From positions 1 to 12,353 of the forward strand of contig JAAWAY010000094.1 of the NCBI GenBank assembly GCA_022792415.1: a stretch of 12,353 bases of DNA, written 5' to 3'. The DNA is from Eggerthellaceae bacterium. GTDB lineage: Bacteria > Actinomycetota > Coriobacteriia > Coriobacteriales > Eggerthellaceae. The stretch's first letter is position 1; the number at the start of each line of letters is the position of its first letter. A program made the position numbers and the translations under genes. Below, one piece after another: positions 2 to 12,353 of this stretch. A model generated the notes under the pieces. The model saw only the letters and a program-made list of their open reading frames with translations, had not been told where the DNA came from and searched no databases.

Positions 2-1402
2 TCGCGCATGAGCCAGGGCGAGCGCTACGACCAGTGGGACTTTATCCGCAGCGGCGCCGCGCGCGTGGTGGTGGGCGCCCGCAGCGCGCTGTTTACCCCG
101 CTGGCCGACGTGGGCCTCGTCGTCATCGACGAGGAGCACGAGGGCTCCTACAAGCAGGACTCCGCCCCCCGCTACCAGGCGCGCGACGTGGCCGAGTGGA
201 TGATGCGCCGGTCGGGCGGCGCGCTCGTGCTGGGCTCGGCCACGCCGTCGGTCGAGGCGCTGCACGCCGCCGCCACCCGCGACGCGTGGACCCAGGTGCG
301 CCTGCCCGAGCGCGCCAACGGCCGGCCGCTGCCGCAGGTGGAGGTCGTCGACATGGCCGCCGAGTTCAAGGGCGGGTCGCGCGCCATGTTCTCGGGACGG
401 CTCACCCGCGCGCTGGGCGAGGAGCTCTCGCAGGGCCGCAAGGCGGTGCTGCTGCTCAACCAGCGCGGGTTCGCCAAGTTCCTGCTGTGCCGCGACTGCG
501 GCTTCGTGCCCGAGTGCCCGCACTGCGCCACGTCGCTGGCCTACCACGACTCCGACCGCACGCTGCGCTGCCACCACTGCGACTACCGCGTGGCCGCCCC
601 CCCGACGTGCCCTGAGTGCGGCAGCCCCTACCTCAAGAAGTTCGGCGCGGGCACCCAGCGGGTGGAGGCCGAGCTGCGCGCGCTCCTGGACGGGATGCCC
701 GGCGTGGGCCCGGGCGTGCCCGTCATCCGCATGGACGCCGACACCACGCGCGGCAAGGGCGCCCACCAGCGCCTGCTCGAGGAGTTCGCCGCCGCGGACG
801 CCGCCGTGCTGCTGGGCACGCAGATGATCGCCAAGGGCCTCGACTTCGACGACGTGACGCTCGTGGGCGTCATCAACGCCGACACGCAGCTGCACCTGCC
901 CGACTACCGCGCAGGCGAGCGCACGTTCGACCTGATCGAGCAGGTGGCCGGCCGCGCGGGCCGCGCCGAGCTGCCCGGGCGCGTGCTCGTGCAGACCTAC
1001 GAGGCCGACGCCGTGGCCATCCGCGCCGCGGCCGCCTACGACCGCGCGCTGTTCCTGCGCGCCGAGCTGCCCAAGCGCCGCGCGCTGGGCTACCCGCCCT
1101 ACGTGGCCCTGGCCAACGTGCTGGCTTGGGGCCCCGACGAGGGCGAGGTGGCGCGCGTGGCGACCGACCTGCAGCGCCAGCTGGAGGCGCTCGCGCGTGA
1201 CCACGGCGGCCCCGACTGGCAGGTGCTCCCGGCCACGCCCTGCGCGCTCGGCAAGCTGCGCAACGCCTACCGCTGGCACGTGGTGGTCAAGGCCCCGCCC
1301 GGCGCCGACATCCCCGGCGTCCTGACGCGCCTGTTCCGCGCGCGCAAGGCCGACGCCGCGGTGAACGTGGCCGTCGACGTCGACCCGGTCGACCTGCTGT
1401 AG
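2..1402 (+). CDS. priA: Primosomal protein N-prime (PriA replication-restart helicase), 3' portion. The gene runs off the left edge; the M at 8 is internal.
   Basis: In-frame continuation from the window edge. DEEH (DExH) helicase motif II (VVIDEEHEG). Canonical PriA Cys-rich zinc-binding region (CRDCGFVPECPHCATSLAYHDSDRTLRCHHCDY...CPECGS). Helicase C-terminal region and PriA C-terminal domain. High-GC codon usage. TAG stop at 1400-1402. Confidence 0.9.
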   Translation, partial: SRMSQGERYDQWDFIRSGAARVVVGARSALFTPLADVGLVVIDEEHEGSYKQDSAPRYQARDVAEWMMRRSGGALVLGSATPSVEALHAAATRDAWTQVRLPERANGRPLPQVEVVDMAAEFKGGSRAMFSGRLTRALGEELSQGRKAVLLLNQRGFAKFLLCRDCGFVPECPHCATSLAYHDSDRTLRCHHCDYRVAAPPTCPECGSPYLKKFGAGTQRVEAELRALLDGMPGVGPGVPVIRMDADTTRGKGAHQRLLEEFAAADAAVLLGTQMIAKGLDFDDVTLVGVINADTQLHLPDYRAGERTFDLIEQVAGRAGRAELPGRVLVQTYEADAVAIRAAAAYDRALFLRAELPKRRALGYPPYVALANVLAWGPDEGEVARVATDLQRQLEALARDHGGPDWQVLPATPCALGKLRNAYRWHVVVKAPPGADIPGVLTRLFRARKADAAVNVAVDVDPVDLL

Positions 1403-1454
1403 CCCGCCGCCGCCTGCGGGGCCCGCGCGCCGCGCGGAGCGCCCCGGCAACGCG

Positions 1455-1460
1455 TATAAT
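1455..1460 (+). promoter_or_regulatory. Perfect TATAAT -10 hexamer in the priA-downstream intergenic region. Possible promoter for the 1540 gene.
   Basis: gcgTATAATcag seen directly. No convincing -35 17 bp upstream (the region is GC-rich), so the support is weak. Confidence 0.25.
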
Positions 1461-1539
1461 CAGGGGAAACAAGCGCAAGCCGGCCAGAGGGGCCGCGCCC
1501 GGGCCGTCGGGCCCGGCAGGCCGAGGGGAAGGAGGGGCC

Positions 1540-2622
1540 GTGTCGACCAGCAGCCGCCGGTGGCGGTGGGCCTCCGCCCGCGCCCTCGTCTCGTCGCTCA
1601 CGCCGGCCGCCGCGGGCCTGGCGGCCCTCTCGGTGGCGCTCGTCGCGCTAACGGCCGGCGCCTACGGCCTGGCCGTCCCGGCCCTGGCCGGGCAGAGCGC
1701 CCTCGTGCTGGGCCCCGTCACCGCTGCGCCGTTTCCCCACGTGGACCGCGCCGACGGCCTGGCGGCCACGGGTGGCGCGCCGGGCCTGGGCGAGGTCGCC
1801 CCGCGCGACGGGGCCGAGGGCGGCGCCGACGGCGCTGACGGGGCCGACCCCGCCGCGGCCGGCGCCGAGCCCGCCGGGGGAGCCGACTCCGCGGGCGCGC
1901 TGCCGCCCACGCTCGGCACCATCCTGCTCCCCACCGTCAGCGCCGGCGCGTCCGACGCGCAGGCGGTCGCCACGGGCGGCGGCTCGGGAGGCGTGGCATC
2001 CGGCGCGGCCGGGTCGGCTGGCTCGTCTGGCTCGGCGGGGTCGTCGGGGTCCTCGGGCGGCGCCGGCACGGCCGGATCGACGGGCGGATCCTCGGGCGGC
2101 AGCTCGTCATCGGGCGGGTCGTCGTCGGGGCCCGCGGAGGAGCCGCGGGGTGAGGCGGCCATCCAGCAGGCCTACGAGACCGAGCACAACGACGAGGTGA
2201 AGGCCCTGCTCACGCGCTACTACCAGCAGGTGCCCACCTACATGAACCGCGCCATCGAGGCATACAACGCCTTCCCTGCGCAGGCCAAGACGGCCTCGCT
2301 CTCGCAGCGCCAGGCCTACGCCGCGCAGGTGGAGTCCCAGATGTCGCAGGCCATCGGCCCGTGGAACCAGATGACGCTCGACATGCAGGGCAAGCGCTGC
2401 TCCCAGTACTACCGGGACAAGTACGCCGAGATCGACAAGCTCTACAGCGACGTGTACAAGGTGTACGAGGGGCTGCAGGAGGCGTGGGGCGTCAACCTGG
2501 GCTACGCCGACCCCGCCGGCCACGAGGCCGACTACCTCGCGCCCCTCAACGCGCGCCTGAGCGGCGGACGCCCGGCGGCGGTGGTCGACTACGAGCGCCG
2601 CCTGGCAGGGGCGCGCCCGTGA
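1540..2622 (+). CDS. Secreted or membrane-anchored hypothetical protein. It has an N-terminal signal/anchor, an Ala/Gly/Asp and Gly/Ser low-complexity linker, and a C-terminal ~170-aa helical domain of unknown function.
   Basis: GTG start at 1540 preceded by GGGGAAGGAGGGG (SD). Basic N-terminus (RRWRW) then a hydrophobic stretch. GC3-rich codon usage. The TGA stop at 2620-2622 overlaps the ATG of the next gene (TGATG). Confidence 0.75.
   Translation: MSTSSRRWRWASARALVSSLTPAAAGLAALSVALVALTAGAYGLAVPALAGQSALVLGPVTAAPFPHVDRADGLAATGGAPGLGEVAPRDGAEGGADGADGADPAAAGAEPAGGADSAGALPPTLGTILLPTVSAGASDAQAVATGGGSGGVASGAAGSAGSSGSAGSSGSSGGAGTAGSTGGSSGGSSSSGGSSSGPAEEPRGEAAIQQAYETEHNDEVKALLTRYYQQVPTYMNRAIEAYNAFPAQAKTASLSQRQAYAAQVESQMSQAIGPWNQMTLDMQGKRCSQYYRDKYAEIDKLYSDVYKVYEGLQEAWGVNLGYADPAGHEADYLAPLNARLSGGRPAAVVDYERRLAGARP
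1972..2131 (+). repeat. Degenerate tandem nucleotide repeats (ggctcg / tcgggcgg units) encoding the Gly/Ser-rich linker of the 1540-2622 protein.
   Basis: Directly visible repeated ggctcgtctggctcggcggggtcgtcggggtcctcgggcgg... units. Encodes GSAGSSGSAGSSGSSGGAGTAGSTGGSSGGSSSSGGSSSG. Confidence 0.5.
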
Positions 2623-4373
2623 TGGCGGCGATCGGGGAGGGGGCCCTCGCCGCGCCGGGCGCGGGGAGCCTGCGCCTCGTGCGCGTGGAGGGCTTCGAGG
2701 CGCCCGAGGTGCTGGCCCCGGGCGACGAGGACGCCTACCGGCGCCGCTTCTGCTCGCTGCTCATGGACGACGCCCGCTCCCGGCGGGGCGGCCTGGGCCA
2801 GGTGACCTGGGCCGTCAACGCGCGCGGCGAGGCCCTGGCCGTCAAGCGGCTCCTGCCCGCGGAGGGCGCCGCGGCGGGGTCGCGCGGGTGCCAGGAGGCG
2901 CTCGAGCGCGCCTTCGCGGAGGAATACGAGGGGCACCGGCGCGTGTCGGGCCTCAAGGGCTTCCCGCGCCTGTACGGCCGCGGCACGGTGGACGGCGCGC
3001 CCGCGCTCATCATGGAGTGGGTGGAGGGCGAGACGCTCGAGCACGCGGCGCGGGCGCTGGCCGTGGACGGCGAGGGGCGCCTGTCGCCCCTGACGGCGGC
3101 GCGCCTATCCCGTGACCTGTTCGAGCTGCTGGCGCGCATGGACCTGGTGGAGGGCGGGTTCTCGCACCGGGACGTGACGCCGGCCAACGTCATGGTGTGC
3201 ACCACGCTTCAGCCCTTGGCGGCGCAGGTGGAGGAGGGCGTGTTCGACCTGCGGCTGGTCGACTTCGGCTCGGCGGCCGTGGGGGAGCGCCGGGCCACGT
3301 CGCTCACCGAGGCGTGGGGCGCGCCCCGCGGCGCGACGCCCGAGTACGCCCCGCCCGAGATGCTCACCGAGGACGTGGCCGAGGCCGTGGCGGCCCGCGC
3401 GGGCGCGGCCGTGGACGTGTACGCCGCCGCCGGCGTCGCGCAGCGGCTGCTGACAGGGCGCCCGCCCTTCGACCTGGCCTCCGACGTCCGCTCGCCCTAC
3501 CGCTGCAAGACCGAGGACGTGCCCGCGCCGCTGACCTGCGCGCACGAGGCCGCGACCGACCTGGGGGCGGTGCTGGCGGGCGAGCCCGAGGTGGCCGTGG
3601 CGCTCAGCCACGCCGTCGCCGACGCGGGCGGAGCGCCGGGGCCCGACCGCGCCCGGGAGGCGCTCTGCGCGGTGGACGCGCAGCTGGCGGGCCTGGTGGG
3701 CCCGTGCTTGGCTCCCAAGCCGAAGGACCGCCCCTCCGCCGCGGCGGTGCGCGACGGCCTGACCGCCTTCTGCCGGCAGTACGCCCCCAACCTGGGGCGC
3801 GCCCTGCGCGGCGAGGCGCTCGACCCGGCGGTGCTGGGCGAGGGCGCCACCCGCGTCGCGGACCGCTCGCGCCGTGCCGCCGCCGTGCTGCGGGGCGTCG
3901 CCCGCGCGGCGTGCGGGCTGGTGTGGGCGGCGGTGCTGGCCTCGGCTGCGCTGCTCGCCGACGGCGCGCGCGCCACGGTGGCCACGGGCGCGGGCCCCGA
4001 AGACGTCCTGGTGCCCGGCTGGGCGGTGGCGCTGCTGCTGGCCGCGCCGACGCTGGCGGCGTACGCCGCGCGGGGCCGCAACGGTGACCGTGGATGGGGC
4101 CTCGCCGCGGGGAGCGCCGCCCTGGTCGGGGCGTCGCTTCTGGTCATGGGCGCCGGCGCGGTGGTCGACCTGGCGTCGGGCGAGGTGGCGGCTGCCCTGG
4201 CAGCAGCCCTGGCCGCCTGCGCCGCCGCGGCGTGGTGTCCTATGGCGATCGGCTACGCGCTCTCGCCGCGCCGCCGACGCGCCCGCGCCGGGCGCAGGGC
4301 CGCGCGCGACGGCCTGCCGGCGGGGGAGGACGACGCGCAGGACGGCGCCGAGCCCCTGGGGCTGGCGTCGTAG
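2622..4373 (+). CDS. Hanks-type (PknB-like) Ser/Thr protein kinase-family protein with a C-terminal ~4-helix transmembrane domain. No PASTA or extracellular sensor domain. Atypical catalytic loop HRDVTPAN.
   Basis: ATG at 2622 overlaps the upstream stop (translational coupling); the ORF-track M at 2361 is an in-frame extension across the upstream gene. Kinase subdomains are recognisable: RRGGLGQVTWAV (Gly loop, compare PknB GFGGMSEVH), ALAVKRL (VAIK Lys), EEYE (alphaC Glu), IMEWVEGETL (hinge), HRDVTPANVMV (catalytic loop, with Thr in place of the conserved Lys), DFGSA (DFG), PEYAPPEM (APE), DVYAAAGV...LTGRPPF. The C-terminal third is strongly hydrophobic (multiple predicted TM helices). Confidence 0.8.
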   Translation: MAAIGEGALAAPGAGSLRLVRVEGFEAPEVLAPGDEDAYRRRFCSLLMDDARSRRGGLGQVTWAVNARGEALAVKRLLPAEGAAAGSRGCQEALERAFAEEYEGHRRVSGLKGFPRLYGRGTVDGAPALIMEWVEGETLEHAARALAVDGEGRLSPLTAARLSRDLFELLARMDLVEGGFSHRDVTPANVMVCTTLQPLAAQVEEGVFDLRLVDFGSAAVGERRATSLTEAWGAPRGATPEYAPPEMLTEDVAEAVAARAGAAVDVYAAAGVAQRLLTGRPPFDLASDVRSPYRCKTEDVPAPLTCAHEAATDLGAVLAGEPEVAVALSHAVADAGGAPGPDRAREALCAVDAQLAGLVGPCLAPKPKDRPSAAAVRDGLTAFCRQYAPNLGRALRGEALDPAVLGEGATRVADRSRRAAAVLRGVARAACGLVWAAVLASAALLADGARATVATGAGPEDVLVPGWAVALLLAAPTLAAYAARGRNGDRGWGLAAGSAALVGASLLVMGAGAVVDLASGEVAAALAAALAACAAAAWCPMAIGYALSPRRRRARAGRRAARDGLPAGEDDAQDGAEPLGLAS

Positions 4374-4467
4374 GGCGGGATGCGGACGATTATCGAATCA
4401 AAGCCTTGACCAGGCATTTGCGGCGATTAGCAAGCTATTCGCCGCATGATATGCGGTGAATAAGAAA

Positions 4468-4499
4468 GGGGGCGCGGCCCGAGATCGGGCCGCGCCCCC
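4468..4499 (-). terminator. Intrinsic terminator. A perfect 13-bp GC stem (GGGGGCGCGGCCC / GGGCCGCGCCCCC) with a 6-nt loop, followed on the minus strand by a U-rich tract (CUUUCUUAUU). Possibly bidirectional.
   Basis: Perfect inverted repeat seen directly. The T-run is only on the minus-strand 3' side (plus 4456-4467 = ...ataagaaa). It would end minus-strand transcripts coming from the island operon or gene remnant. It may also stop the plus-strand kinase operon. Confidence 0.6.
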
Positions 4500-4526
4500 T
4501 CTGCGCGTCGGGTACGCGGGCTCCCG

Positions 4527-4668
4527 CTAGGCGCGGGGGACGACCAGGCGCGTCCGGTTCCAGACGCCCTCGTCGTTCACGTAGTAGCGTCCGATCCACT
4601 TGTCGGTGGCCATGGCGCCCGAGTCCTCGAAGTATTACCAGTGGTCACCGGTGCGCAGTTGGGCGGAA
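4527..4668 (-). pseudogene. 3'-terminal remnant of a cell-wall-binding-repeat (CW_binding_1 / choline-binding-type) protein gene. It has an in-frame TAA at 4635-4637, and its 5' part is replaced by low-GC DNA.
   Basis: Minus-strand translation ...ISAQLRTGDHW*YFEDSGAMATDKWIGRYYVNDEGVWNRTRLVVPRA* ends at TAG (4527-4529). Two tandem units match the G-x-M-A-T-G/D-W...YY...G-x-W repeat logic of clostridial/streptococcal cell-wall-binding repeats. GC-rich, host-like. The ORF has no start and an internal stop. Confidence 0.5.
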
Positions 4669-4695
4669 ATCTGATTTCAAATCCAAACGCGTTCG

Positions 4696-5196
4696 CTAGA
4701 TGCGAAACAAGGATCGAATAGCAGAGCCTAGATGAAGGACGGAGCTTATTGTATAAAGGTCATCAGCAGTGAGAGTGTTATCGGAATCGCCATCATCTGG
4801 TTTTTCCTCATCCGGTTCGTTTTCGGGCACAATAGCAGGATTTTCGATCGTCTCTGTTGTCCCATCCATATATTGTATTTCCACTTTTTTCAATTGTGCC
4901 GATGCAATTGTTCCGTTATACCAAAGATGCTCAAAATGATACGACTCGTATGCACCGGGCTCAATCGGGCCTACGCCTTGGGCAAGTTTTATTGGGGAGT
5001 TGCTATTTCTTTCACCGACGATGTCACCCACAGAATTGATGGCCTGTAAGGTGAACTTAATATACTTTACTGTTTTGTCGGTATCGTTTTGAAGACGGAT
5101 TCGGACGCCAGCCCCACCAGCGCTATCCACACCGCTAATGAAGCAATCATTGTAATCTTTATATCCAACTCGCACCGACGAAATTATTATTCCCAT
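4696..5196 (-). CDS. Hypothetical small protein (166 aa), predicted beta-rich with an acidic C-terminal segment. Last gene of the low-GC operon.
   Basis: ATG at 5196..5194 with SD GGAGAGG 7 nt upstream. The ORF-track start at 5202 is a TTG two codons earlier. Low-GC codon usage matches the neighbouring island genes. No recognisable motif. Confidence 0.65.
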   Translation of the reverse strand: MGIIISSVRVGYKDYNDCFISGVDSAGGAGVRIRLQNDTDKTVKYIKFTLQAINSVGDIVGERNSNSPIKLAQGVGPIEPGAYESYHFEHLWYNGTIASAQLKKVEIQYMDGTTETIENPAIVPENEPDEEKPDDGDSDNTLTADDLYTISSVLHLGSAIRSLFRI

Positions 5197-5240
5197 TTTC
5201 AATCCTCTCCATCAAGGTTTCTTCAATGCTAGTATTTCGG

Positions 5241-6179
5241 TTATTCTCCACATGCCATCTTGTTTTTCACCTCTCTAATCATGTGCTTTTTGCTTGCTAT
5301 TTCCTCGTCAGTTAGCCGTGGTGTTTCAACGTATGCGCCCCATTTGTTGCGGACGAGATCCATTGAATTTCTTTCAAGCAACTCGCTAATCATGGTTATC
5401 ACCAACTGATAAACCTCAGATTTTGATTCCTGGTGCGTTTCGACGAGATCGGCAACTTTGATTAACACCTTGGTGCAGTTATCCGTTTCTTCTTCTAATT
5501 CCCAGAAGGCTGACCGAGTTTTGCTCATGTCGTAATCGCGCACTATTTCCGAGGCAACGTCTCTCATGGCTGAACAAACGATGGTTGTGGCTTTCCCAAA
5601 CACCTTTTGTTGACTAACGACAACGCCGGCCGAAGCCTCGTATTTCTTTATCGCCGAAGAGAAAGAATCGATGCCAGCGGAAAAGATGTCCGTGAAGTAT
5701 TCGTTTGTGAGCATTGAAACGTTTGCGCAACCCAAGGTCATCAGCCGGATTGCCAGTTCCTCGAGATATGATTCAATTGTTTTCGCCGCTGTTCTTTTTT
5801 CTGATTCGAAAGGTAAAGATTTGAGCGCCTGGATGAAACACGAAATAGACTCTTCAATACGAAGATTTTTCAGTGTCATCAGTTGGCCTATAGCCCGGCC
5901 TTTAAGTACATATACATCAAACCCCTGAGGTTCTTCCTCAATGGCTTTGTTGCAATGCGCTATCGCCAGGCTCCAATCGCTGGCATTGTAAGAGTCTTGA
6001 GCGAGCTCAAGGCGAAGATTTGCAGAATGAGCAAAACCGTCTTTTAGGCTACCCCCCCCCCTGGTGCTATTCTGCTCAAAAGACAGGTCATGCTCGACGC
6101 CGCAGCATTCGCAAACGGCGATGTTTCCCTCGCCCGTTTTTAGCCGACCTCCGCATATGTTGCATACGAGTGTTGCCAT
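5241..6179 (-). CDS. Zinc-ribbon plus TPR-like helical protein (312 aa), hypothetical.
   Basis: N-terminal CNICGG...CECCG (CxxC-x15-CxxC zinc ribbon). A TPR-like unit (SDWSLAIAHCNKAIEEEPQGFDVYVLKGRAIGQL). ATG at 6179..6177, 3 nt after the stop of the upstream gene (TGAGCCATG). Low GC. Confidence 0.7.
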   Translation of the reverse strand: MATLVCNICGGRLKTGEGNIAVCECCGVEHDLSFEQNSTRGGGSLKDGFAHSANLRLELAQDSYNASDWSLAIAHCNKAIEEEPQGFDVYVLKGRAIGQLMTLKNLRIEESISCFIQALKSLPFESEKRTAAKTIESYLEELAIRLMTLGCANVSMLTNEYFTDIFSAGIDSFSSAIKKYEASAGVVVSQQKVFGKATTIVCSAMRDVASEIVRDYDMSKTRSAFWELEEETDNCTKVLIKVADLVETHQESKSEVYQLVITMISELLERNSMDLVRNKWGAYVETPRLTDEEIASKKHMIREVKNKMACGE

Positions 6180-6182
6180 GGC

Positions 6183-6743
6183 TCACTCACCAGATTCCCG
6201 TTGGAGAGAGGCGCAGCACGTTTCGCGGCGGCATTTCTTGGCGTTGTCGTTGTCAATGGGGATAATGCTGTCAGCGTCGTAATAGTTGTCTCTTACGATG
6301 GCCCCAATCTGGTACACGAGGTCCACGAGATCAGCCGATTCCTCCGCTAGTTTTTGGAATTGAGAATCAACATCATCGTATTGATCCAAAGTTACCAATT
6401 GATGCACGAGCTTATTTCGTTCCTTGCACCACCTTTTCACAGAGCGAAGCGTATCGGGCTTCACGTCCTTGACCAGGGGATACTCTCTTTTGGATAAACG
6501 TATAAGGCACTCGATCTTGGTTGTGATGCCTGTCGGCCTCGCATTTTCTGCTCGCGGCGCTTTCGGGCAGCCCTGCGCTATTTTTGAAATAATGCGATCG
6601 AAGCGGTTTTCGAAGCATGCATAGGCATACCAGCACGTCTCAACGTAAGACCCTCGCTCTATTGCGTTGTTGATGCGCTGAAGAACGTCATCGTGCATTG
6701 CTGCCATTTCAAGTCGCTTTTCATAGGGTTCCAAGGGTTCCAT
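6183..6743 (-). CDS. Hypothetical all-alpha protein (186 aa) with a HEPN-like R-N-x3-H motif (KERNKLVHQ). Candidate HEPN-superfamily RNase or Abi-like effector.
   Basis: ATG 6743..6741 lies 3 nt after the stop of the upstream gene (TAGGCCATG). Rx4H (R109-N-K-L-V-H114, nt 6402-6419) sits in a predicted helical context about 110 aa into the protein, as in HEPN domains. No other family signature recognised. The functional call is inference. Confidence 0.65.
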   Translation of the reverse strand: MEPLEPYEKRLEMAAMHDDVLQRINNAIERGSYVETCWYAYACFENRFDRIISKIAQGCPKAPRAENARPTGITTKIECLIRLSKREYPLVKDVKPDTLRSVKRWCKERNKLVHQLVTLDQYDDVDSQFQKLAEESADLVDLVYQIGAIVRDNYYDADSIIPIDNDNAKKCRRETCCASLQRESGE

Positions 6744-6746
6744 GGC

Positions 6747-7421
6747 CTACTTCTTTCCTGCCTTGATCATGATGTTGCGTTTGTCGAGAAGGCGAGATAT
6801 TGACTGGAGGGTCTCCAGATCAACCCTTCCGCTTTCCTTAACCTGTTCGACATAGGCGTTGATTTGACTCTCTATCTCCGACGTCGACTCGAGGCTCCTC
6901 GAATTGCTGAACCGGGCCGTGTCTATCAACTCGTTCAAGGCTTTCTGCTCTTCGCCTCTTACTTCGAAATCAGCCTCGATGCCGCGTAGGCTCATAAGGA
7001 GGTCGCGGGAGAAGGCCGTGGACCTTTCAGCTGCATTCTCGACTTGGCTGGCGTAGCTCATGCCCTTTTCTGCGCCGATTAACGCGATTGAACTCATGGC
7101 CAGGAGAATGACGCCAGTAACAATCGATATGGTTGTATCTCCGGGTAGCAAGAGGGCGAGCGCTCCACCCACAGCGAGCTGGATAAGCAGGAAGAGCGTG
7201 GGTAGAACAAGTTTCGGGTACGTTTGGAACAGCCCTGAGACGTCGGCTTGCGTTCTGCTGATGCCTGCGAAATAAAGAAGAACTCCTTGCGCCAGGCCAA
7301 ACAAGAGCGCGATCCACGAGGTAGCGGTCTGCGGCGCAAGCAACGAGATAAGGAGCGCATACGCTGCGTAGATGATTGCAAGGATGCCGAGGCAGGCTAC
7401 CCTCATTGTTGGTTTCTTCAT
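6747..7421 (-). CDS. Integral membrane protein (224 aa). About 4 N-terminal TM helices, then a cytoplasmic coiled-coil/helical domain. Possibly a YdjH-like partner of the SPFH protein.
   Basis: ATG 7421..7419 preceded by AAGGAGGGG (SD). Starts 3 nt after the stop of the SPFH gene (TAGGCTATG). Long hydrophobic segments (ILAIIYAAYALLISLLA, WIALLFGLAQGVLLYFAG, LVLPTLFLLIQLAVGGALALLL, IVTGVILLAMSSIALIGA) followed by a charged heptad-like C-terminus. Confidence 0.75.
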   Translation of the reverse strand: MKKPTMRVACLGILAIIYAAYALLISLLAPQTATSWIALLFGLAQGVLLYFAGISRTQADVSGLFQTYPKLVLPTLFLLIQLAVGGALALLLPGDTTISIVTGVILLAMSSIALIGAEKGMSYASQVENAAERSTAFSRDLLMSLRGIEADFEVRGEEQKALNELIDTARFSNSRSLESTSEIESQINAYVEQVKESGRVDLETLQSISRLLDKRNIMIKAGKK

Positions 7422-7424
7422 AGC

Positions 7425-8561
7425 CTATCCCCTCCTTGTGCCACACTCGGGGCAGAATTTCTCCGTTGAGCCGAAGGGCCTGCCGCACTCCGGGCAGAAT
7501 TTTGCGTTTTGCTGACCTGTATCTGCTGGTTGCCCGTTGCCGTCGACAACGGAGACGGAAGGTGGGTCGACCAAGGGGTCGGCTGTCCCGATTGAGCTCG
7601 CCATCGCACCGCTTACCAGGTTCCCCACTGGGCCGCCGACGCCACTCACCATTCCGAGCCCGATTCCCATGTTTGCGAACTCGCCAACGCCCTCATTGGC
7701 AGCCACCTTTTCGGCAACATCGAAACCGCGCTCCTGCTGATAGGTGTAGCCCTCGATGCGACGCTTGTCGGCGGTGGCGCCAGCCTCGATCACCGTGCGC
7801 TTGGCCTCTGTCTCCTGATTTATGATGCCGACTTGCTGCTCGATCTGCGCCTCGCGTACATCGGCGTACTGGCGGAAATACAGCTCGCGGAACTTCTCGT
7901 AGATAGGATCTCCCTCGGGTCTCATGACCGTCGTCACGAGAAACTGCGTGAGCTCAAGGCCGTATTCCTCGAAGTCGGATGCTAGCCGACCTTTAACGTC
8001 GTCGGAAAACTCCTCCAAGTGCGCGTCAAGCTCGAAAATATTAAGCGCTTTATTCTGTACAGCCTGTACAAGAGCGGTTTTTACACGTGTCTGCAAGAAA
8101 GCCTTGAAATAGCTAATGAGATTGTCTTGTGACAGCACCGCCTCTGTTCCGACAATCTTTACAAGTAGTTTTTTAGCTTCGCGTACGGCGAGCGCCATTT
8201 CGCCCGAGGCGCCAATCGACAGGGGAAACCCGAACTCGGGCTCCATGTACTGTACTTTCGAGTTGGTCCCCCAGGGGATGCCCATCTGCTCGGTAAGGTT
8301 TACAAAGTAAACCTCGGCATGAAAGGGGGATATGCCGTTTGACGGCAGGCTTACAACCTTGTTGATGAGTGGGAGGTTCTGGGTCTCCAGCGTATGGCGC
8401 CCAGGGCCAAATAGATCGAGTGCTTGACCGTTGAGGAAAAACATTGCCTCCTGCGACTCGTGGACAATGAGTTGCGAGGCGGTATTGAAATCCTCCGCGG
8501 GATGTTTCCAGATGAAGGTGCGGTTGTCGCCCTCATACTTAATGACGTCGATAATTCCCAT
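7425..8561 (-). CDS. SPFH/Band-7 (flotillin-like) protein of the YdjI / Band_7_1 type with a C-terminal double CxxC zinc ribbon (378 aa).
   Basis: Recalled similarity to B. subtilis YdjI: ...AEVYFVNLTEQMGIPWGTNSKV versus AEVLFVNTKEFTVRWGTKQ; a Gly/Met-rich low-complexity segment; C-terminal FCPECG...FCPECG versus YdjI NFCPNCG...NFCPNCG. Start taken at ATG 8561..8559 (MGIIDVIKYEG...) with SD GGAGGGG 9 nt upstream. The ORF-track extension to 8762 has no SD, is Cys-rich junk, and covers the predicted promoter. Confidence 0.85.
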   Translation of the reverse strand: MGIIDVIKYEGDNRTFIWKHPAEDFNTASQLIVHESQEAMFFLNGQALDLFGPGRHTLETQNLPLINKVVSLPSNGISPFHAEVYFVNLTEQMGIPWGTNSKVQYMEPEFGFPLSIGASGEMALAVREAKKLLVKIVGTEAVLSQDNLISYFKAFLQTRVKTALVQAVQNKALNIFELDAHLEEFSDDVKGRLASDFEEYGLELTQFLVTTVMRPEGDPIYEKFRELYFRQYADVREAQIEQQVGIINQETEAKRTVIEAGATADKRRIEGYTYQQERGFDVAEKVAANEGVGEFANMGIGLGMVSGVGGPVGNLVSGAMASSIGTADPLVDPPSVSVVDGNGQPADTGQQNAKFCPECGRPFGSTEKFCPECGTRRG

Positions 8562-8658
8562 TCCAGCATGCCCCTCCATACAAGACAGACAGTCCAGAGC
8601 CAAGAAGCGACCTCCTGTCCTCGAGAAGGGAAAGAGGCTGCAATCCGTTCCACTGGCT

Positions 8659-8687
8659 TTGAATGATATGTGGGGTGAGAGGTAACT
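8659..8687 (+). promoter_or_regulatory. Candidate plus-strand promoter for the FHA-A gene. TTGAAT-17-GTAACT immediately abuts the palindromic operator.
   Basis: Hexamers seen directly. The -10 is weak. Position relative to the palindrome (8687-8700) is consistent with repressor control. Confidence 0.3.
8663..8668 (-). promoter_or_regulatory. Candidate -10 (TATCAT) of the minus-strand island operon promoter. The palindrome lies in its -35 region.
   Basis: Minus strand reads TTGTTGCGCAACAAGTTACCTCTCACCCCACATATCATTC. TATCAT matches TATAAT at 5 of 6. This gives a roughly 95-nt leader to ATG 8561. Confidence 0.3.
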
Positions 8688-8700
8688 TGTTGCGCAACAA
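8687..8700. promoter_or_regulatory. Perfect 14-bp palindrome TTGTTGCGCAACAA in the divergent intergenic region (operator-like). The core TGTTGCGCAACA recurs at 9881-9892.
   Basis: Exact dyad symmetry seen directly. An identical 12-bp core recurs 1.2 kb away. It sits between the divergent candidate promoters. Confidence 0.55.
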
Positions 8701-8869
8701 AGTCGAGCGATCAGGGGTGTTTGAGCGGAGGGTCGGCTTCGCCTCGCGCAAACGGCAACCAATCTCGTCTATGCTATGCTCATCAGCGAAAACAACGGGG
8801 CAGCAGCTTGCTCTCGCATCGACACACCCGGCGCGGGCGCCGCGCTCAGGGCAAGAAGGAGGCCGCCGG

Positions 8870-9838
8870 ATGGCAGCGACCGATACCACCCCGGGCATGG
8901 TGCTCTTCTCAACCCTCAAGCGCGACGCGTCCCTCAGCTACAAGGACACGGCCTCGCTCGTGCTGTCGGGCCGGCCCCTGCCGGACGGTCGCAGCCCGCT
9001 CAGCCGCATCGATGACCGCACGTGGCTGTCGCGCTACGTGGTGAACGCGCCGGCCGGCACCGCCCAGCCCCACTTCTTCAACGATTTCTCGCTGTCGGCC
9101 CTGCGCATCACGGCGCGCCTGAAGTCGAAGCGCGGCCGTGGGATGTCGGGTGAGGACGTGCTGGCGCTCGTGACGGGCGACGCGGGCCGCGCCATGGAGG
9201 ACGCGCTGGCCGCGTGCCACCAGGACGTCGGACCCTACCGTAACCAGATGGCGCGCGTGATGGGCGACGCGGGGCTCACGGCCGACGAGCGGGCCGAGGC
9301 TGCCATGGTGCTGTTCGTGGCGGCCGGCTGCACGGCCGACGTGCGCCGCGCGGTGGAGGCGACGTCCGACTTCATGCGCAGCGCGCACGGCGGCGGCCTG
9401 TCGACGCCGGCGTTCGCGCTCATGCCGCGCGAGGGGACGCCCCGGCGCGGCGAGGCGCCCGCTCCGTCACTGGGCCTGCTGCGCGTGGTGGACGGCTATG
9501 TGTGCGGGGCGCCCCACTGGGTGGCGCCCGATGGCGAGGGCGCGGAGATTGGCGCGCTCTCCTTCGCCGACGGGGCGGTGACCGACGTGGGCGAGGACGT
9601 GTCGGGGCGCCACGCGCGCCTGTGGAACGAGGACGGTGCGTGGCTGGTGGAGGGCCTGGGGTCCACCAACGGCACGGTGCTCGTGTCCGCCGCGGACGGG
9701 TCACGGGTGGTGGTAGAGCCGCCGGCGCGCGAGCGGGCCGGCTTCGAGCCGGCGCCCGTGGAGGTGCGCCCGGGCGACCAGCTGCTGCTGGGCGGCACCA
9801 CCGCGTTCCTGGTGCTGGAAGGATCACCTGACGCATAG
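8870..9838 (+). CDS. FHA-domain protein, paralog A (322 aa). An N-terminal ~220-aa domain of unknown function plus a C-terminal forkhead-associated (phosphothreonine-binding) domain. High GC.
   Basis: ATG 8870 with SD AAGAAGGAGG 7 nt upstream; the ORF-track M at 8663 is an upstream in-frame extension. FHA signature VSGRHARLWNEDGAWLVEGLGSTNGTVLV (S-x-x-H, NG-T, then hydrophobic beta strands, ...PGDQLLLGGTTAFLV). About 45% identical, and the same length, as the 10618-11586 product. Confidence 0.85.
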   Translation: MAATDTTPGMVLFSTLKRDASLSYKDTASLVLSGRPLPDGRSPLSRIDDRTWLSRYVVNAPAGTAQPHFFNDFSLSALRITARLKSKRGRGMSGEDVLALVTGDAGRAMEDALAACHQDVGPYRNQMARVMGDAGLTADERAEAAMVLFVAAGCTADVRRAVEATSDFMRSAHGGGLSTPAFALMPREGTPRRGEAPAPSLGLLRVVDGYVCGAPHWVAPDGEGAEIGALSFADGAVTDVGEDVSGRHARLWNEDGAWLVEGLGSTNGTVLVSAADGSRVVVEPPARERAGFEPAPVEVRPGDQLLLGGTTAFLVLEGSPDA

Positions 9839-9880
9839 CCCGTCTTGCGGGGCCTTCTCCATACGTTCATCACCAAATAC

Positions 9881-9892
9881 TGTTGCGCAACA
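9881..9892. promoter_or_regulatory. Second copy of the palindrome TGTTGCGCAACA, 43 nt after the FHA-A stop and 64 nt before the 9956 ATG.
   Basis: Exact 12-bp perfect palindrome identical to the core at 8688-8699. Flanking sequence is not conserved, so it is a discrete site rather than a long duplication. Confidence 0.55.
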
Positions 9893-9910
9893 CCGCCTGC
9901 GCAGGCGGTG
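9891..9910. other. Perfect 20-bp palindrome CACCGCCTGCGCAGGCGGTG (hairpin-capable), overlapping the operator core by 2 nt and followed by AAAAA.
   Basis: Seen directly. Could be a U-tract-less terminator for FHA-A, a second operator, or an RNA structural element. Confidence 0.4.
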
Positions 9911-9955
9911 AAAAACTGGGCTTCCTATCCATGACCGGAAGGAAGCGTCCCAACC

Positions 9956-10621
9956 ATGGTCCAGTGCAACGGCAACCTCATCGTCTTCGCCTGCGAAGAT
10001 GCTCTGATGCACGCCATTCTTCTGGAAATGGGCTCCAACCTTGCGAAAGCCGAGCGTCGACGGTCAAGACACTATGTCAGTCCCGTTTCGGCTATCAGGA
10101 TCGAGGGAACGGAGTCGACGCAGGAGCTGCTGGGCAAGATAGTGCCGCTTTACCTGAAGGACCCTGTCGCTGCCCTTAATCCAAACTCACGCACGAGTGC
10201 CGCCGATGGAGAGCCGGCTCCTCCTGATCTGAAGGTCATAGACGGGTACACGGTGCTATCCCTTGCTTTCGCCACTGACGGAGGCGTGGTTGATTCCGAT
10301 GTGACACAGTTCGTTCGAGCCCTGCCCTCCGAGCAGTGCGGCATTGCAGCTTGCCACTGGTTTGATGGACTTGAGAGACGTCTGCTTATTCAGGGCAACC
10401 TGCGTGACGCCGGCCCGTTTCGCTGCGGCGGTCCAGCAGGTGGAATCGATTCGCTTGAGTTGTTCTTCGGACAGGATATGTTCGCGACCCCCGAGCAGTG
10501 GGAGCGTTTCCTGCACAGTAATAGTTCCGCAGGGGGAGATGTCACCTCGCCGCACGATGACGGGCCGCAGGGCGTGGCTAATCGAAGACTGGCAGCTATG
10601 ATCGGGGATGCTGGACTGTGA
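9956..10621 (+). CDS. Hypothetical cytoplasmic protein (221 aa), translationally coupled to FHA paralog B. Medium GC.
   Basis: ATG 9956 with a GGAAGGAAG purine-rich stretch upstream. The TGA stop (10619-10621) overlaps the GTG start of the next gene (GTGA). No recognisable motif. The C-terminal ...RRLAAMIGDAGL resembles a segment (RNQMARVMGDAGL) of FHA-A. Confidence 0.65.
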   Translation: MVQCNGNLIVFACEDALMHAILLEMGSNLAKAERRRSRHYVSPVSAIRIEGTESTQELLGKIVPLYLKDPVAALNPNSRTSAADGEPAPPDLKVIDGYTVLSLAFATDGGVVDSDVTQFVRALPSEQCGIAACHWFDGLERRLLIQGNLRDAGPFRCGGPAGGIDSLELFFGQDMFATPEQWERFLHSNSSAGGDVTSPHDDGPQGVANRRLAAMIGDAGL

Positions 10622-11586
10622 CACTGCCCGAGGTCTCGCCTCGCGTGGTGCTGTTTGACACGATAAAGCGACTCGGAGGCGTCAGCTATAAGGAAACGGC
10701 GCGAATGCTTCTGTCTTCGCGACCGCTGATGGGAGGGCGCAGTCCCGCAGAGCGCCTTGAGAGCAGTCGCACGTGGCTGACGCGCGAGGTGGTGCATGCC
10801 GAAAACTTTGCAGGGCAGCCCGGTTTGTTCTGCGATTTTGAGGTGGGGGCGATGCGAGTGCTGGCGCGGCTCAAATCGACCAGGGCCGGGGGCCATGGTG
10901 GCGCTGCTTTAGTTCGCGAGCTCTGCGAGGGGCAGGCTGCGGCTGACATGCTGCAGGCCCTAGAGGCAACGGGACGAGGGGGACGCCTGTACCGAAACAT
11001 GCTCACGCGTCTCGTCCGCGCGAACGGCTTGGAGAACGACGAGCGTGCCGAGGTTGCCATGGTGCTGTTTGTGGCGGCGGGCTGCACAGGTGATGCGCGG
11101 ACGGCAGTTGCTGACGCCTTGAGGTTCTCGCACTCCGTTCATGGTGGCCGTATGGAAATGGGAGACGCTGAAGTCGCGGAAGACTCGAACGGGGTTTGTC
11201 TGGTTTCTCACGATGACAGCCCGCCCCTTCTTGGTCTTCTTCGCATGGTCGGTGACTACATTGCAGGCGGTCCCTACTGGGTGTCCCCGGAGCGCGACGG
11301 CGCCACGATCGGCATGCTCGCGCTCGGGTCGGAGGATATCGTCGACGTTGAGCCTGATGTGGCGAATCATCATGCCCGTGTGTGGTTTGACGGGTCATCG
11401 TGGTTCGTCGAGGACCTCAGGTCGGGTTCGGATGTGGCAGTGTTTCGTGATGACAATACATGCCATGAAGTAGCTTTTGGTGGAATCGCTCACTTAAGCC
11501 GTGGGGATGAGATCGTGCTCGGCCGAGGTACGCGATTCCACGTTGTATTCGGTCTTCCTGGTGTTGATCGGCCAGCTCCGCTTTAA
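10618..11586 (+). CDS. FHA-domain protein, paralog B (322 aa). Same architecture as 8870-9838 but in about 56% GC DNA.
   Basis: GTG start overlapping the upstream stop. Collinear gap-free N-terminal alignment with paralog A (VVLFDTIKR...SYKETARMLLSSRPLMGGRSP versus MVLFSTLKR...SYKDTASLVLSGRPLPDGRSP). Shared DERAEVAMVLFVAAGCTGD block. C-terminal FHA-like segment (NHHARVWFDGSSWFVEDLRSGSDVAVF). Confidence 0.85.
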   Translation: MTLPEVSPRVVLFDTIKRLGGVSYKETARMLLSSRPLMGGRSPAERLESSRTWLTREVVHAENFAGQPGLFCDFEVGAMRVLARLKSTRAGGHGGAALVRELCEGQAAADMLQALEATGRGGRLYRNMLTRLVRANGLENDERAEVAMVLFVAAGCTGDARTAVADALRFSHSVHGGRMEMGDAEVAEDSNGVCLVSHDDSPPLLGLLRMVGDYIAGGPYWVSPERDGATIGMLALGSEDIVDVEPDVANHHARVWFDGSSWFVEDLRSGSDVAVFRDDNTCHEVAFGGIAHLSRGDEIVLGRGTRFHVVFGLPGVDRPAPL

Positions 11587-11708
11587 GGGGGAGGCCCACT
11601 TTTTCAGTGATATGTGCTTCAGAAGCCGTCTCAACGGGGGCAGATGGCGGGAATCAGAGTACTTGCGCGTACGTGGGGCCCGGCTTTTGCAATGCCCTCG
11701 CGTGTCTC

Positions 11709-11737
11709 TTTACGCTGGTATTTCCTCTTGCTACAAT
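11709..11737 (+). promoter_or_regulatory. Candidate sigma70-type promoter TTTACG-17-TACAAT on the plus strand. It could drive a short antisense RNA across the 3' end of the small minus-strand ORF.
   Basis: Hexamers and 17-nt spacer seen directly. It lies downstream of the FHA-B stop and about 55 nt upstream of the 11793-11826 hairpin. Speculative. Confidence 0.25.
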
Positions 11738-11792
11738 GTGGTCAGCGGATGCCCGTGTTTGGTGATGCGGGCAACGCCGTTTTGTTTCTTTG

Positions 11793-11826
11793 GTGACCGC
11801 AGGCCTCAGCTAGCGCCTGCGGTCAC
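11793..11826. other. 12-bp-stem hairpin (GTGACCGCAGGC-N10-GCCTGCGGTCAC) overlapping the stop codon of the small minus-strand ORF. U-rich on its plus-strand 5' side; UUU follows the stem on the plus strand.
   Basis: Perfect 12-bp inverted repeat seen directly. Not a canonical terminator in either orientation. Possibly a shared 3' stabiliser or terminator of convergent transcripts. Confidence 0.45.
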
Positions 11827-11935
11827 GCTGCGTTTCGGGGCGCTCACCCCGTGCTATGGACACGGCCTTGACCACCGCCGTCGCCAATCCCACCACCGCA
11901 GTGGCAAGCGCAACAACTTGAACAGCCAATTCCAT
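11810..11935 (-). CDS. Unannotated 41-aa small hydrophobic peptide MELAVQVVALATAVVGLATAVVKAVSIARGERPETQRDRRR. One TM helix plus a charged tail. Type I toxin-like or small membrane protein.
   Basis: ATG 11935..11933 preceded by a perfect SD AGGAGG (plus 11946-11951) at 10-nt spacing. Clean ORF to TAG (11812..11810). Missed by the ORF track, whose cutoff is 60 aa. Candidate promoter upstream (see 12017-12045). Confidence 0.45.
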   Translation of the reverse strand: MELAVQVVALATAVVGLATAVVKAVSIARGERPETQRDRRR

Positions 11936-12016
11936 GGGCAAATCACCTCCTTTCGTAAAAGAAGGCGCTGCCAGCACACGGGGCTTACTCCGCTGACCGC
12001 TTCCGATTTTATCATG

Positions 12017-12045
12017 ATTATAGGAACATACGTTCTATATTTAAA
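12017..12045 (-). promoter_or_regulatory. Minus-strand promoter TTTAAA-17-TATAAT for the small ORF. A GAAC-N4-GTTC (Cheo/LexA-type) box at 12024-12035 sits in the spacer next to the -10.
   Basis: Minus strand reads TTTAAATATAGAACGTATGTTCCTATAATCATG. Perfect -10. GAACGTATGTTC matches the Gram-positive SOS-box consensus GAAC-RNRY-GTTC in both orientations. AT-rich island in otherwise GC-rich DNA. Confidence 0.35.
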
Positions 12046-12282
12046 TATACTCTATTTGATTATAAGCGGGCCGCTCAATGACTACATTTGTTGCCGGAAC
12101 GCATGAAGCATGAAAGCTGAGGATAATCGAACTTCTATCAGCTGAAAAAAACGAAGCAGAGCTTGCTCATCTCTTGGCGGAGAGGGACGGATTGAGGAAT
12201 TCGTTTGCTGGCGGGCGAGAATCGGACTGTCGAAGAGTGGTCCGAGCATAAGATCGACGAGATGTTCAACAGGAAATTAGGG

Positions 12283-12353
12283 ATGTGGAGTGGCGGCTTT
12301 GAGCGGATCTTGGGAAAGGTTGATGTGGCCTTCTCCCTCCCTTGCCCCCCACA
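12283..12353 (+). CDS. Possible 5' end of a gene running off the right edge (MWSGGFERILGKVDVAFSLPCPP...).
   Basis: ATG 12283 with AGGAAA 6 nt upstream. The open frame continues to the window end. Only 23 codons are visible, and an alternative in-frame ATG exists at 12262. Confidence 0.25.
   Translation, partial: MWSGGFERILGKVDVAFSLPCPP

Follow-up and report, generated by a model that had tools for sequence, protein, structure and literature searches.

A standalone HEPN-fold protein, predicted to be an RNase effector, encoded with SPFH and four-transmembrane proteins in an acquired island of an Eggerthellaceae genome

The stretch of DNA analysed here (the window) is a 12,353-nt contig of a metagenome-assembled genome from an Eggerthellaceae bacterium. 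It carries a low-GC island, the third gene of which encodes a protein of 186 amino acids that is deposited as a hypothetical protein. A first-pass annotation of the window had pointed out an R-N-x3-H motif in this protein, typical of the catalytic motifs of HEPN proteins. We propose that it is a standalone HEPN protein of a previously unmodelled family, and that it probably serves as the RNase effector of a sensor-effector conflict system, scaffolded by an SPFH protein and a four-transmembrane (4TM) protein encoded in the same operon. HEPN RNases are a main effector class of prokaryotic immunity (Cas13, Csm6, HepT, Abi proteins, RAZR). To our knowledge, SPFH or flotillin-like proteins have so far been linked to membrane organization and to the Psp stress response, and not to nuclease effectors. 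The gene and its motif are located as follows.

6183-6743, minus strand: standalone 186-aa HEPN-fold protein, third of five co-directional genes.
6402-6419, minus strand: codons CGA AAT AAG CTC GTG CAT for R109-N110-K-L-V-H114, read from the sequence; predicted catalytic motif.

The segment KERNKLVHQL begins at residue 107, which gives R109, N110 and H114. When the open reading frame (ORF) and its residue numbering were re-read, the arginine and histidine, their spacing and the polar residue after the arginine were all exactly as the annotation had described them. A motif of this type in a single sequence is not significant on its own, because 20,000 shuffles of the protein produced Rx4-6H in 41%, R[polar]x3-5H in 20% and the exact RNx3H in 0.9%, and because the protein contains a second Rx6H (R10..H17), which is not conserved. 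It is the conservation of the motif in 19 homologues and 92 remote relatives that raises it above chance.

Close homologues were found by a search of 5.8 billion clustered proteins, which yielded 19 family members (alignment A1). R109, N110 and H114 are invariant in all 19, down to 37% identity. Other invariant positions are M13, M16, H17, D18, D19, V20, W38, Y41, F44, E45, R47, R50, K54 and W105, together with six cysteines (C37, C43, C59, C79, C106 and C171). A profile search of 1.84 billion representatives gave 225 more distant proteins at E<=1e-3, and among the best 150 of these 225 almost every full-length protein has RNxxxH (in a few cases RDxxxH) at the equivalent place. Alignment A2 contains 92 of these remote relatives, with 17-46% identity to the 186-aa protein. 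Here R109 is kept in 90, N110 in 86 and H114 in 91 of the 92, and the other near-invariant positions are E35 (88/92), E45 (90/92), R47 (89/92), W105 (91/92) and G136 (84/92). The conservation of the R...H pair, on which the first reading depended, is therefore borne out, including the polar asparagine after the arginine. The cysteines and the MHDDV motif (M13-V20) are specific to the close subfamily and are absent in the wider family. A Zn site, an Fe-S site or a redox switch may be built from them.

The HEPN superfamily is described (Anantharaman et al. 2013, PMC3710099) by a conserved Rx4-6H with a polar residue (N, D or H) after the arginine, located at the end of helix 3 or the start of the H3-H4 loop, by an insert between H2 and H3, and by a second conserved acid in helix 2, typically in the form Ex3[KR]. 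AlphaFold2, run with the 19-sequence alignment, predicts that the 186-aa protein is all-helical (pLDDT 87.9, pTM 0.84), with helices at 7-29, 33-58, 73-85, 96-118, 130-156 and 165-170. These can be assigned as H1 (7-29), H2 (33-58), an insert (59-95), H3 (96-118) and H4 (130-156), followed by a Cys-containing tail. Residues 109-114 are predicted to lie in the last third of helix 96-118, just before the loop 119-129. E45 and R47 are both within helix 33-58, with a spacing of ExR, not Ex3[KR]. The modelled fold thus agrees with the HEPN-type core that the annotation had anticipated. An H2-H3 insert precedes the helix whose last third holds the motif, helix 2 has a conserved acid, and in these respects the protein matches the description of the superfamily. 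Structures listed with the fold model were the sacsin HEPN domain (9.2), TTHA0636 (9.0), the HepT toxin 7ae2 (8.7) and Csm6 6tug (8.3), and also YutE, TT1696, AMPylated HepT 8xdj, SsR10, ST0689 and HI0074.

Placement within the superfamily was less direct. The 186-aa protein has no match in Pfam, NCBIfam or PHROGs. PADLOC gave E-values of 0.005-0.011 to CARF_HEPN models, over residues 93-156 and to the C-terminal HEPN part of the models only. Among the 92 relatives there were sub-threshold Pfam matches to RiboL-PSP in 7 (best 7e-5), to Apea, HEPN and HepT-like_2 in 3 each, to Cthe_2314 and Ymh in 2 each and to DUF4145 in 1, a set dominated by HEPN families. Weak PADLOC matches of the relatives were to Csx1/Csm6, several CARF_HEPN models and RTasHEPN. 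Family consensus sequences matched RiboL-PSP-HEPN at 5e-4 and 1.5e-3 (in the second case aligning residues 4-135 with positions 57-185 of the 191-position profile), Cthe_2314-HEPN at 1e-3 and Swt1-HEPN at 0.05, all below the gathering scores. The Abi families (Abi_2/AbiD-F, AbiV, AbiU2, AbiJ) gave no profile match. A comparison with named HEPN models had been suggested by the annotation, and none of them passed: the protein is not a member of Abi_2, AbiV, HepT or Csm6. Because the weak matches are dominated by HEPN families, yet none reaches a gathering score, the protein is placed, as judged from its sequence, in a new, unmodelled and cysteine-rich family of the HEPN superfamily, outside all of the named families.

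The nearest profiles are those of the RiboL-PSP-like (PF18735) and Cthe_2314-like (PF18730) HEPNs. The 186-aa protein resembles them in the four-helix up-down core and in the H2-H3 insert (PMC3710099). It also has in common with them the RNxxxH at helix 3's end and the acid in helix 2, and the matches cover nearly the whole domain. The scores are 19-20 bits, against cut-offs of 27-28, and unlike both families the close subfamily adds MHDDV, six invariant cysteines and a C-terminal Cys tail. In the portion of Table 1 of PMC3710099 that was consulted, SPFH and ubiquitin-like (Ubl) contexts are not given for either family.

The other genes of the operon, and the island in which they lie, are listed below.

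7425-8561, minus strand: SPFH protein (Band_7_1) that also has a Gly-rich linker and, at its C-terminus, a zinc ribbon; from Pfam, with the start taken from homologues and the ribosome-binding site.
6747-7421, minus strand: 224-aa membrane protein with four transmembrane (TM) helices, family F4; from hydropathy and an alignment of 17 family members.
5241-6179, minus strand: 312-aa zinc-ribbon/TPR-like (ZnR-TPR) protein; from BLASTP and weak TPR matches.
4696-5202, minus strand: 168-aa protein, the final gene of the operon; from BLASTP.
4450-8900, no strand: low-GC island with approximate borders; from composition.

The order of genes is SPFH, 4TM, HEPN, ZnR-TPR and 168-aa protein, with stop-to-start gaps of 3, 3, 3 and 38 nt. 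The annotation had described the HEPN gene as tightly coupled to a membrane protein and an SPFH scaffold, and had called this context unusual. The tight packing is real, because the gaps from SPFH through 4TM and HEPN to ZnR-TPR are 3 nt each. The context is not unusual, but is the conserved context of one clade of the family, seen in about 15 of 33 loci and recurrent in gut bacteria. The island has 51% GC (44-56% for individual genes), while the host genes on either side have 75-77%, and this contrast identifies the operon block as a foreign island; the operon was horizontally acquired. The host flanks encode PriA, a protein kinase and FHA proteins. No integrase, tRNA (by tRNA scan) or flanking direct repeat (by repeat search) was found at the island borders. 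Scanning the window for Rfam families, tandem repeats, tRNAs and promoters or terminators contributed nothing further.

The gene context was compared across about 33 distinct loci. These were gathered by HEPN-only queries from assemblies, species-representative genomes and metagenomes, and their neighbouring genes were classed by BLAST against reference neighbours and by Pfam; for two remote relatives the contigs were too short to show any context. About 15 of the 33 loci (type A) have the order SPFH (Band_7_1 with a C-terminal Zn ribbon), 4TM, HEPN. They include the window, L007, L012, L015, L019, L027, L028, L030-L034, L036, L039 and L041. The 4TM gene lies between SPFH and HEPN in most of the type-A loci that have a complete SPFH-to-HEPN stretch, the exceptions being L015, whose version is TM-less and 126 aa long, and L032, where the order is permuted. 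In type A the gene after HEPN opens with a Zn-ribbon and TPR module homologous to the N-terminus of the 312-aa protein of the window. The larger proteins of this kind (F9), where the N-terminus is intact, carry TIR_2 at about residues 158-281 in 10 of 10 cases scanned (9 loci, mostly directly after HEPN), followed by a variable C-terminus consisting of DUF6273, RCC1 repeats or further TPR repeats. An adaptor with TIR and a variable C-terminal sensor, as found in most relatives, is the layout of a sensor-effector conflict system. TIR_2 partners whose C-terminal sensor is variously DUF6273, RCC1 beta-propeller repeats or extra TPRs are encoded after or near HEPN in L028, L030, L031, L032, L034, L036 and L039, and L032, L034 and L036 have two or three of these partner paralogues in tandem.

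One type-A locus, L027, contains a complete diversity-generating retroelement (DGR) at 8547-12947, made up of a variable repeat (VR, 10858-10981), bAvd (11145-11534), a template repeat (TR, 11572-11695) and a reverse transcriptase (11889-12947). The 124-nt VR/TR pair has 20 mismatches, of which 18 are at template adenines. The target is the DUF6273 C-terminus of the ZnR-TPR-TIR-TPR protein encoded directly after the HEPN gene. The linkage to a DGR is documented in L027 only, because eight further targets searched for TR/VR pairs yielded no more than one short non-adenine match. The window has no DGR.

In about 8 loci (type B, including L009 at 519-10742, L020, L022, L026, L035, L038 and L040), HEPN is encoded between a multi-Zn-ribbon-TM-Ig protein and a Ubl-conjugation operon, the components of which are a YukD-like Ubl, a ThiF E1, a UQ_con-FHA E2, a trypsin-like protease, JAB, Prok-RING/zinc-ribbon and JAB-LysM proteins. 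Upstream there is usually an HTH and ImmA(M78) regulator pair, seen in L009/L011, L020, L026, L040 and the partial locus L043. Identification of the type-B loci as Bub operons was considered and rejected, as they lack DUF6527/BubE and their parts differ. In the remaining loci the HEPN gene either comes after genes for lipoproteins or TM proteins or is accompanied by nothing but a 97-aa ZnR-TPR remnant (L001-L004). The gene immediately upstream of HEPN varies, encoding membrane proteins, lipoproteins or Zn-ribbon-TM-Ig proteins. In a distance tree of the HEPN proteins, type A is separate from type B and the others, the protein of the window falls in the type-A clade, and context tracks the tree. 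The operon is conserved and has mobile elements for neighbours, with recombinase genes (resolvase, integrases) flanking several of the operons.

The SPFH protein of the window matches Pfam Band_7_1 at 9e-39 and also Zn_Ribbon_1. It is YdjI-like and has no TM segment of its own. The mechanical ORF (7425-8762) opens at a TTG and is 67 codons longer at its 5' end than the gene that begins with the ATG at 8561 (MGIIDVIKY), the start supported by homologues and by an upstream GGAGG. The 4TM protein has four predicted TM helices followed by a cytosolic helical domain of about 100 residues, and is likely to be the membrane anchor for the SPFH protein. It has no match in Pfam, NCBIfam or PADLOC. Its cytosolic domain carries the family motif R[YF][SA]DPxS, here as RFSNSRS, and a C-terminal RNxxxK.

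The 312-aa protein consists of an N-terminal CxxC...CxxC zinc ribbon, a TPR-like segment with weak TPR matches and a helical C-terminal region. In related loci, the ZnR-TPR-TIR-sensor proteins encoded after HEPN have a homologue of its N-terminal module at their own N-terminus, and BLASTP matched the 312-aa protein to L007_317 (35%), L015_369, L021_385 and the N-termini of the F9 proteins of L017 and L027. Word-indexed homologue searches with the ZnR-TPR and 4TM proteins returned only the queries themselves. ZnR-TPR was therefore folded from a single sequence, and the resulting AlphaFold2 model (pLDDT 43) was unusable. The 168-aa protein has no family match (Pfam, PADLOC, NCBIfam, PHROGs), and BLASTP relates it to L007_236, over the N-terminal part of the latter, and to one domain of the L024 lipoprotein whose gene comes before HEPN. 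The products of L007:4603-5313 and L021:6800-7957 are 56% identical over their C-terminal 130 or so residues, with the motif GCY[VI]ATAVYGSYDCPQVWTLRRYRDYTL. This C-terminal domain is fused to a domain like the 168-aa protein in L007 and to the ZnR-TPR module in L021, and is not present in the 168-aa protein of the window.

Identity between the window and L007 is 76% for SPFH, 55% for HEPN, 39% for the 168-aa protein, 35% for ZnR-TPR and 33% for 4TM. This uneven divergence suits a role for 4TM, ZnR-TPR and the 168-aa protein as fast-evolving interaction or sensor parts. No TIR was found in the operons of the window or L007, and the operon of the window is a TIR-less minimal version of the type-A system.

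The fold, the conservation of the motif and of the operon, the island and its mobile-element neighbours are results of the analysis; RNase activity, dimerization, scaffolding, a trigger and a defence role we infer along the following lines. Catalytic HEPN proteins are homodimers with a composite active site, and they cut RNA without metal to leave a 2',3'-cyclic phosphate. The 186-aa protein would be a metal-independent endoribonuclease, in which R109, N110 and H114 at the end of helix 3 are catalytic and are aided by E45 and R47 of helix 2, and it is probably active as a dimer like other HEPN RNases (PMC3710099, PMC13017515). By analogy with YdjI, the SPFH and 4TM pair would form a membrane-associated scaffold, which may retain the HEPN protein and the Zn-ribbon/TPR adaptor or set their position. 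The trigger could be an envelope signal or perturbation, or else a signal bound by the adaptor or sensor. It would release or activate the RNase, and cleavage of RNA would then lead to growth arrest or abortive infection.

A wider proposal can be made, although we hold it only tentatively and would give it rather less than an even chance. SPFH, 4TM, HEPN and Zn-ribbon/TPR, with or without TIR and a variable sensor, may be an undescribed membrane-scaffolded immune system of gut Firmicutes that was transferred into an Eggerthellaceae genome. A flotillin-like cage or microdomain would hold the HEPN RNase, and a hypervariable receptor, diversified by a retroelement in some cases, would sense the trigger; the same HEPN family would also be used in Ubl operons. 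Searches of the literature on SPFH proteins in combination with HEPN, anti-phage defence or DGR/TIR turned up no SPFH-HEPN system. The HEPN domain is a new family of a well-known superfamily, and the SPFH-4TM-HEPN-(ZnR-TPR-TIR-sensor) architecture is unmatched in PADLOC.

If this is a defence system, it adds a new HEPN family, it suggests a new means of control for a toxic RNase, by sequestration on a membrane scaffold, and it reuses one effector in modular fashion in TIR systems, with DGR-diversified sensors and in Ubl-conjugation operons. The immune-system proposal, if true, would tie SPFH scaffolds to nuclease-based abortive infection for the first time. With 4-5 genes in about 4 kb, the operon is compact enough to be tested by heterologous expression. 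Should the 186-aa protein turn out not to be a nuclease, the poorly understood SPFH proteins of the YdjI type would still have gained a gene neighbourhood that is clear and conserved.

Several results weigh against an RNase effector held on an SPFH and 4TM scaffold. No HEPN model reached its curated cut-off with the protein, its relatives or the consensus sequences. Foldseek comparison of the AlphaFold2 model with the PDB and BFVD gave nothing significant, and profile searches of PDB sequences with A1 and A2 found only noise (coiled-coil designs, FliD, p300). The six invariant cysteines are not explained by a simple model of a metal-independent RNase. The ZnR-TPR adaptor of the window has no TIR or recognizable sensor domain by Pfam scan and BLASTP, and no component of the operon matches a PADLOC model. 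The family was not found in phage or plasmid collections (tblastn with the protein and two remote relatives) or in viral contigs. A further point comes from L001-L004, which are decayed loci (L001:7730-8983, for example) with neither SPFH nor 4TM. HEPN is intact in them on 26 contigs, and the ZnR-TPR remnant of 97 aa matches residues 50-122, with rve transposase and lysin-like genes adjoining. The scaffold is therefore not needed for the gene to be carried. These loci also argue either for an RNase that does not kill constitutively and has to be activated, or for its restraint by the TPR fragment that they retain.

The closest analogy among known systems is the YdjGHI module, whose SPFH protein YdjI we take to be a member of Pfam Band_7_1. 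Like YdjI, the SPFH protein of the window is a Band_7_1 protein that has a zinc finger at its C-terminus and lacks a TM segment, and it is encoded next to a membrane partner. YdjI of B. subtilis is soluble and carries its zinc finger C-terminally; YdjG and YdjH, both membrane proteins, tether it, and it recruits PspA (PMC8581546). YdjI is encoded beside its tethering membrane proteins and a Zn-ribbon-bearing partner, and recruits a client to the membrane. That client, PspA, is ESCRT-III-like and serves in envelope-stress repair, whereas in the window it is a HEPN protein that is co-encoded instead.

This analogy gives the best of the alternatives, namely that the 186-aa protein has no catalytic role and serves an envelope-stress module as a HEPN-fold adaptor or regulator. 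SPFH and 4TM would then act like YdjI and YdjGH in the Psp response, and the HEPN protein would be a structural client or regulator, like the non-nuclease HEPN domains of MtlR and sacsin, with no role in conflict. We consider it unlikely. HEPN families that lose nuclease function typically lose Rx4-6H (PMC3710099), whereas here R, N and H show almost no variation although the family is very divergent. PspA itself has no match in any island protein (Pfam, NCBIfam). Relatives have TIR, DGR and Ubl-conjugation partners with recombinases adjoining, and these point to conflict over housekeeping stress.

Lower in probability is a classical toxin-antitoxin pair, in which a HEPN RNase is constitutively neutralized by an adjacent product (the cytosolic domain of 4TM, or ZnR-TPR) and serves for addiction to the island rather than sensing. 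The comparison is with HepT of the HEPN/MNT systems, of type II (VII) (PDB 7ae2, 8xdj, 5yep), which differs in having an MNT partner and other operon partners, and has no significant sequence similarity to the 186-aa protein. There is no adjacent MNT nucleotidyltransferase or other known antitoxin; no nucleotidyltransferase was found in the five island proteins (Pfam, NCBIfam, PADLOC), nor in Pfam annotations or scans covering part of the related loci. Unlike antitoxins, the partners here are variable and large proteins of several domains (TIR, RCC1, DUF6273, Ubl machinery), and the gene immediately upstream differs among loci.

We give an equally small chance to a HEPN-fold sensor, whose cysteines and H2-H3 insert bind Zn, Fe-S or a nucleotide signal (for example a TIR product) and which relays this to effectors. 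HEPN was first described as a nucleotide-binding domain, the family is frequently linked to TIR proteins, and the six cysteines and MHDDV are invariant and specific to the subfamily. However, the wider family has no such cysteines and still keeps E45, R47, W105 and RNxxxH. The conserved core is therefore a nuclease-type site, and the operons of the window and L007 do without TIR. That the R...H pair arose by chance in a generic helical bundle with no kinship to HEPN, as the shuffles, the empty Foldseek search and the lack of any model passing its threshold might suggest, is very improbable given the conservation described above.

The predicted RNase effector can also be set beside other conflict systems. 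RAZR (PD-T7-4) is an abortive-infection RNase that has an N-terminal Cys4 zinc finger and a DUF4145 HEPN in one polypeptide (PMC13017515). There the zinc ribbon is fused to HEPN and there is no membrane scaffold, whereas here zinc ribbons are found on the neighbouring TPR and SPFH proteins. The 186-aa protein has no N-terminal zinc ribbon and no match to DUF4145, for which the match is weak in the one relative out of 92. Csm6 and Csx1 combine an N-terminal CARF sensor with type III CRISPR, while here there is a HEPN domain only, with no CARF and no cas genes in the loci. DGR-diversified conflict systems have STAND, vWA-MoxR or GTPase cores and occur in multicellular bacteria (Kaur et al. 2020, PMC7159879; PMC10907252). 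The DGR of L027 likewise diversifies the C-terminal domain of a TIR protein encoded after the HEPN gene. The core differs, being SPFH, 4TM and HEPN in gut Firmicutes, with TR/VR in one locus only. RAZR, HepT, YdjI-PspA and the DGR conflict sensors each have one aspect only in common with the operon.

Two further features of the window lie outside the operon. The interval that separates the host kinase gene from the operon's end contains, at 4467-4500, a GC-rich inverted repeat of 16 nt (perfect, with a loop of 2 nt), which may be a terminator, though it has no T-run. Further on, 8663-9838 and 10618-11586, both on the plus strand, encode paralogous proteins with a C-terminal FHA domain, separated by an ORF of 221 aa. 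The first paralogue has 75% GC, like the host, and the second lies within a stretch of 55-63% GC (9800-12353), which may be another acquired segment.

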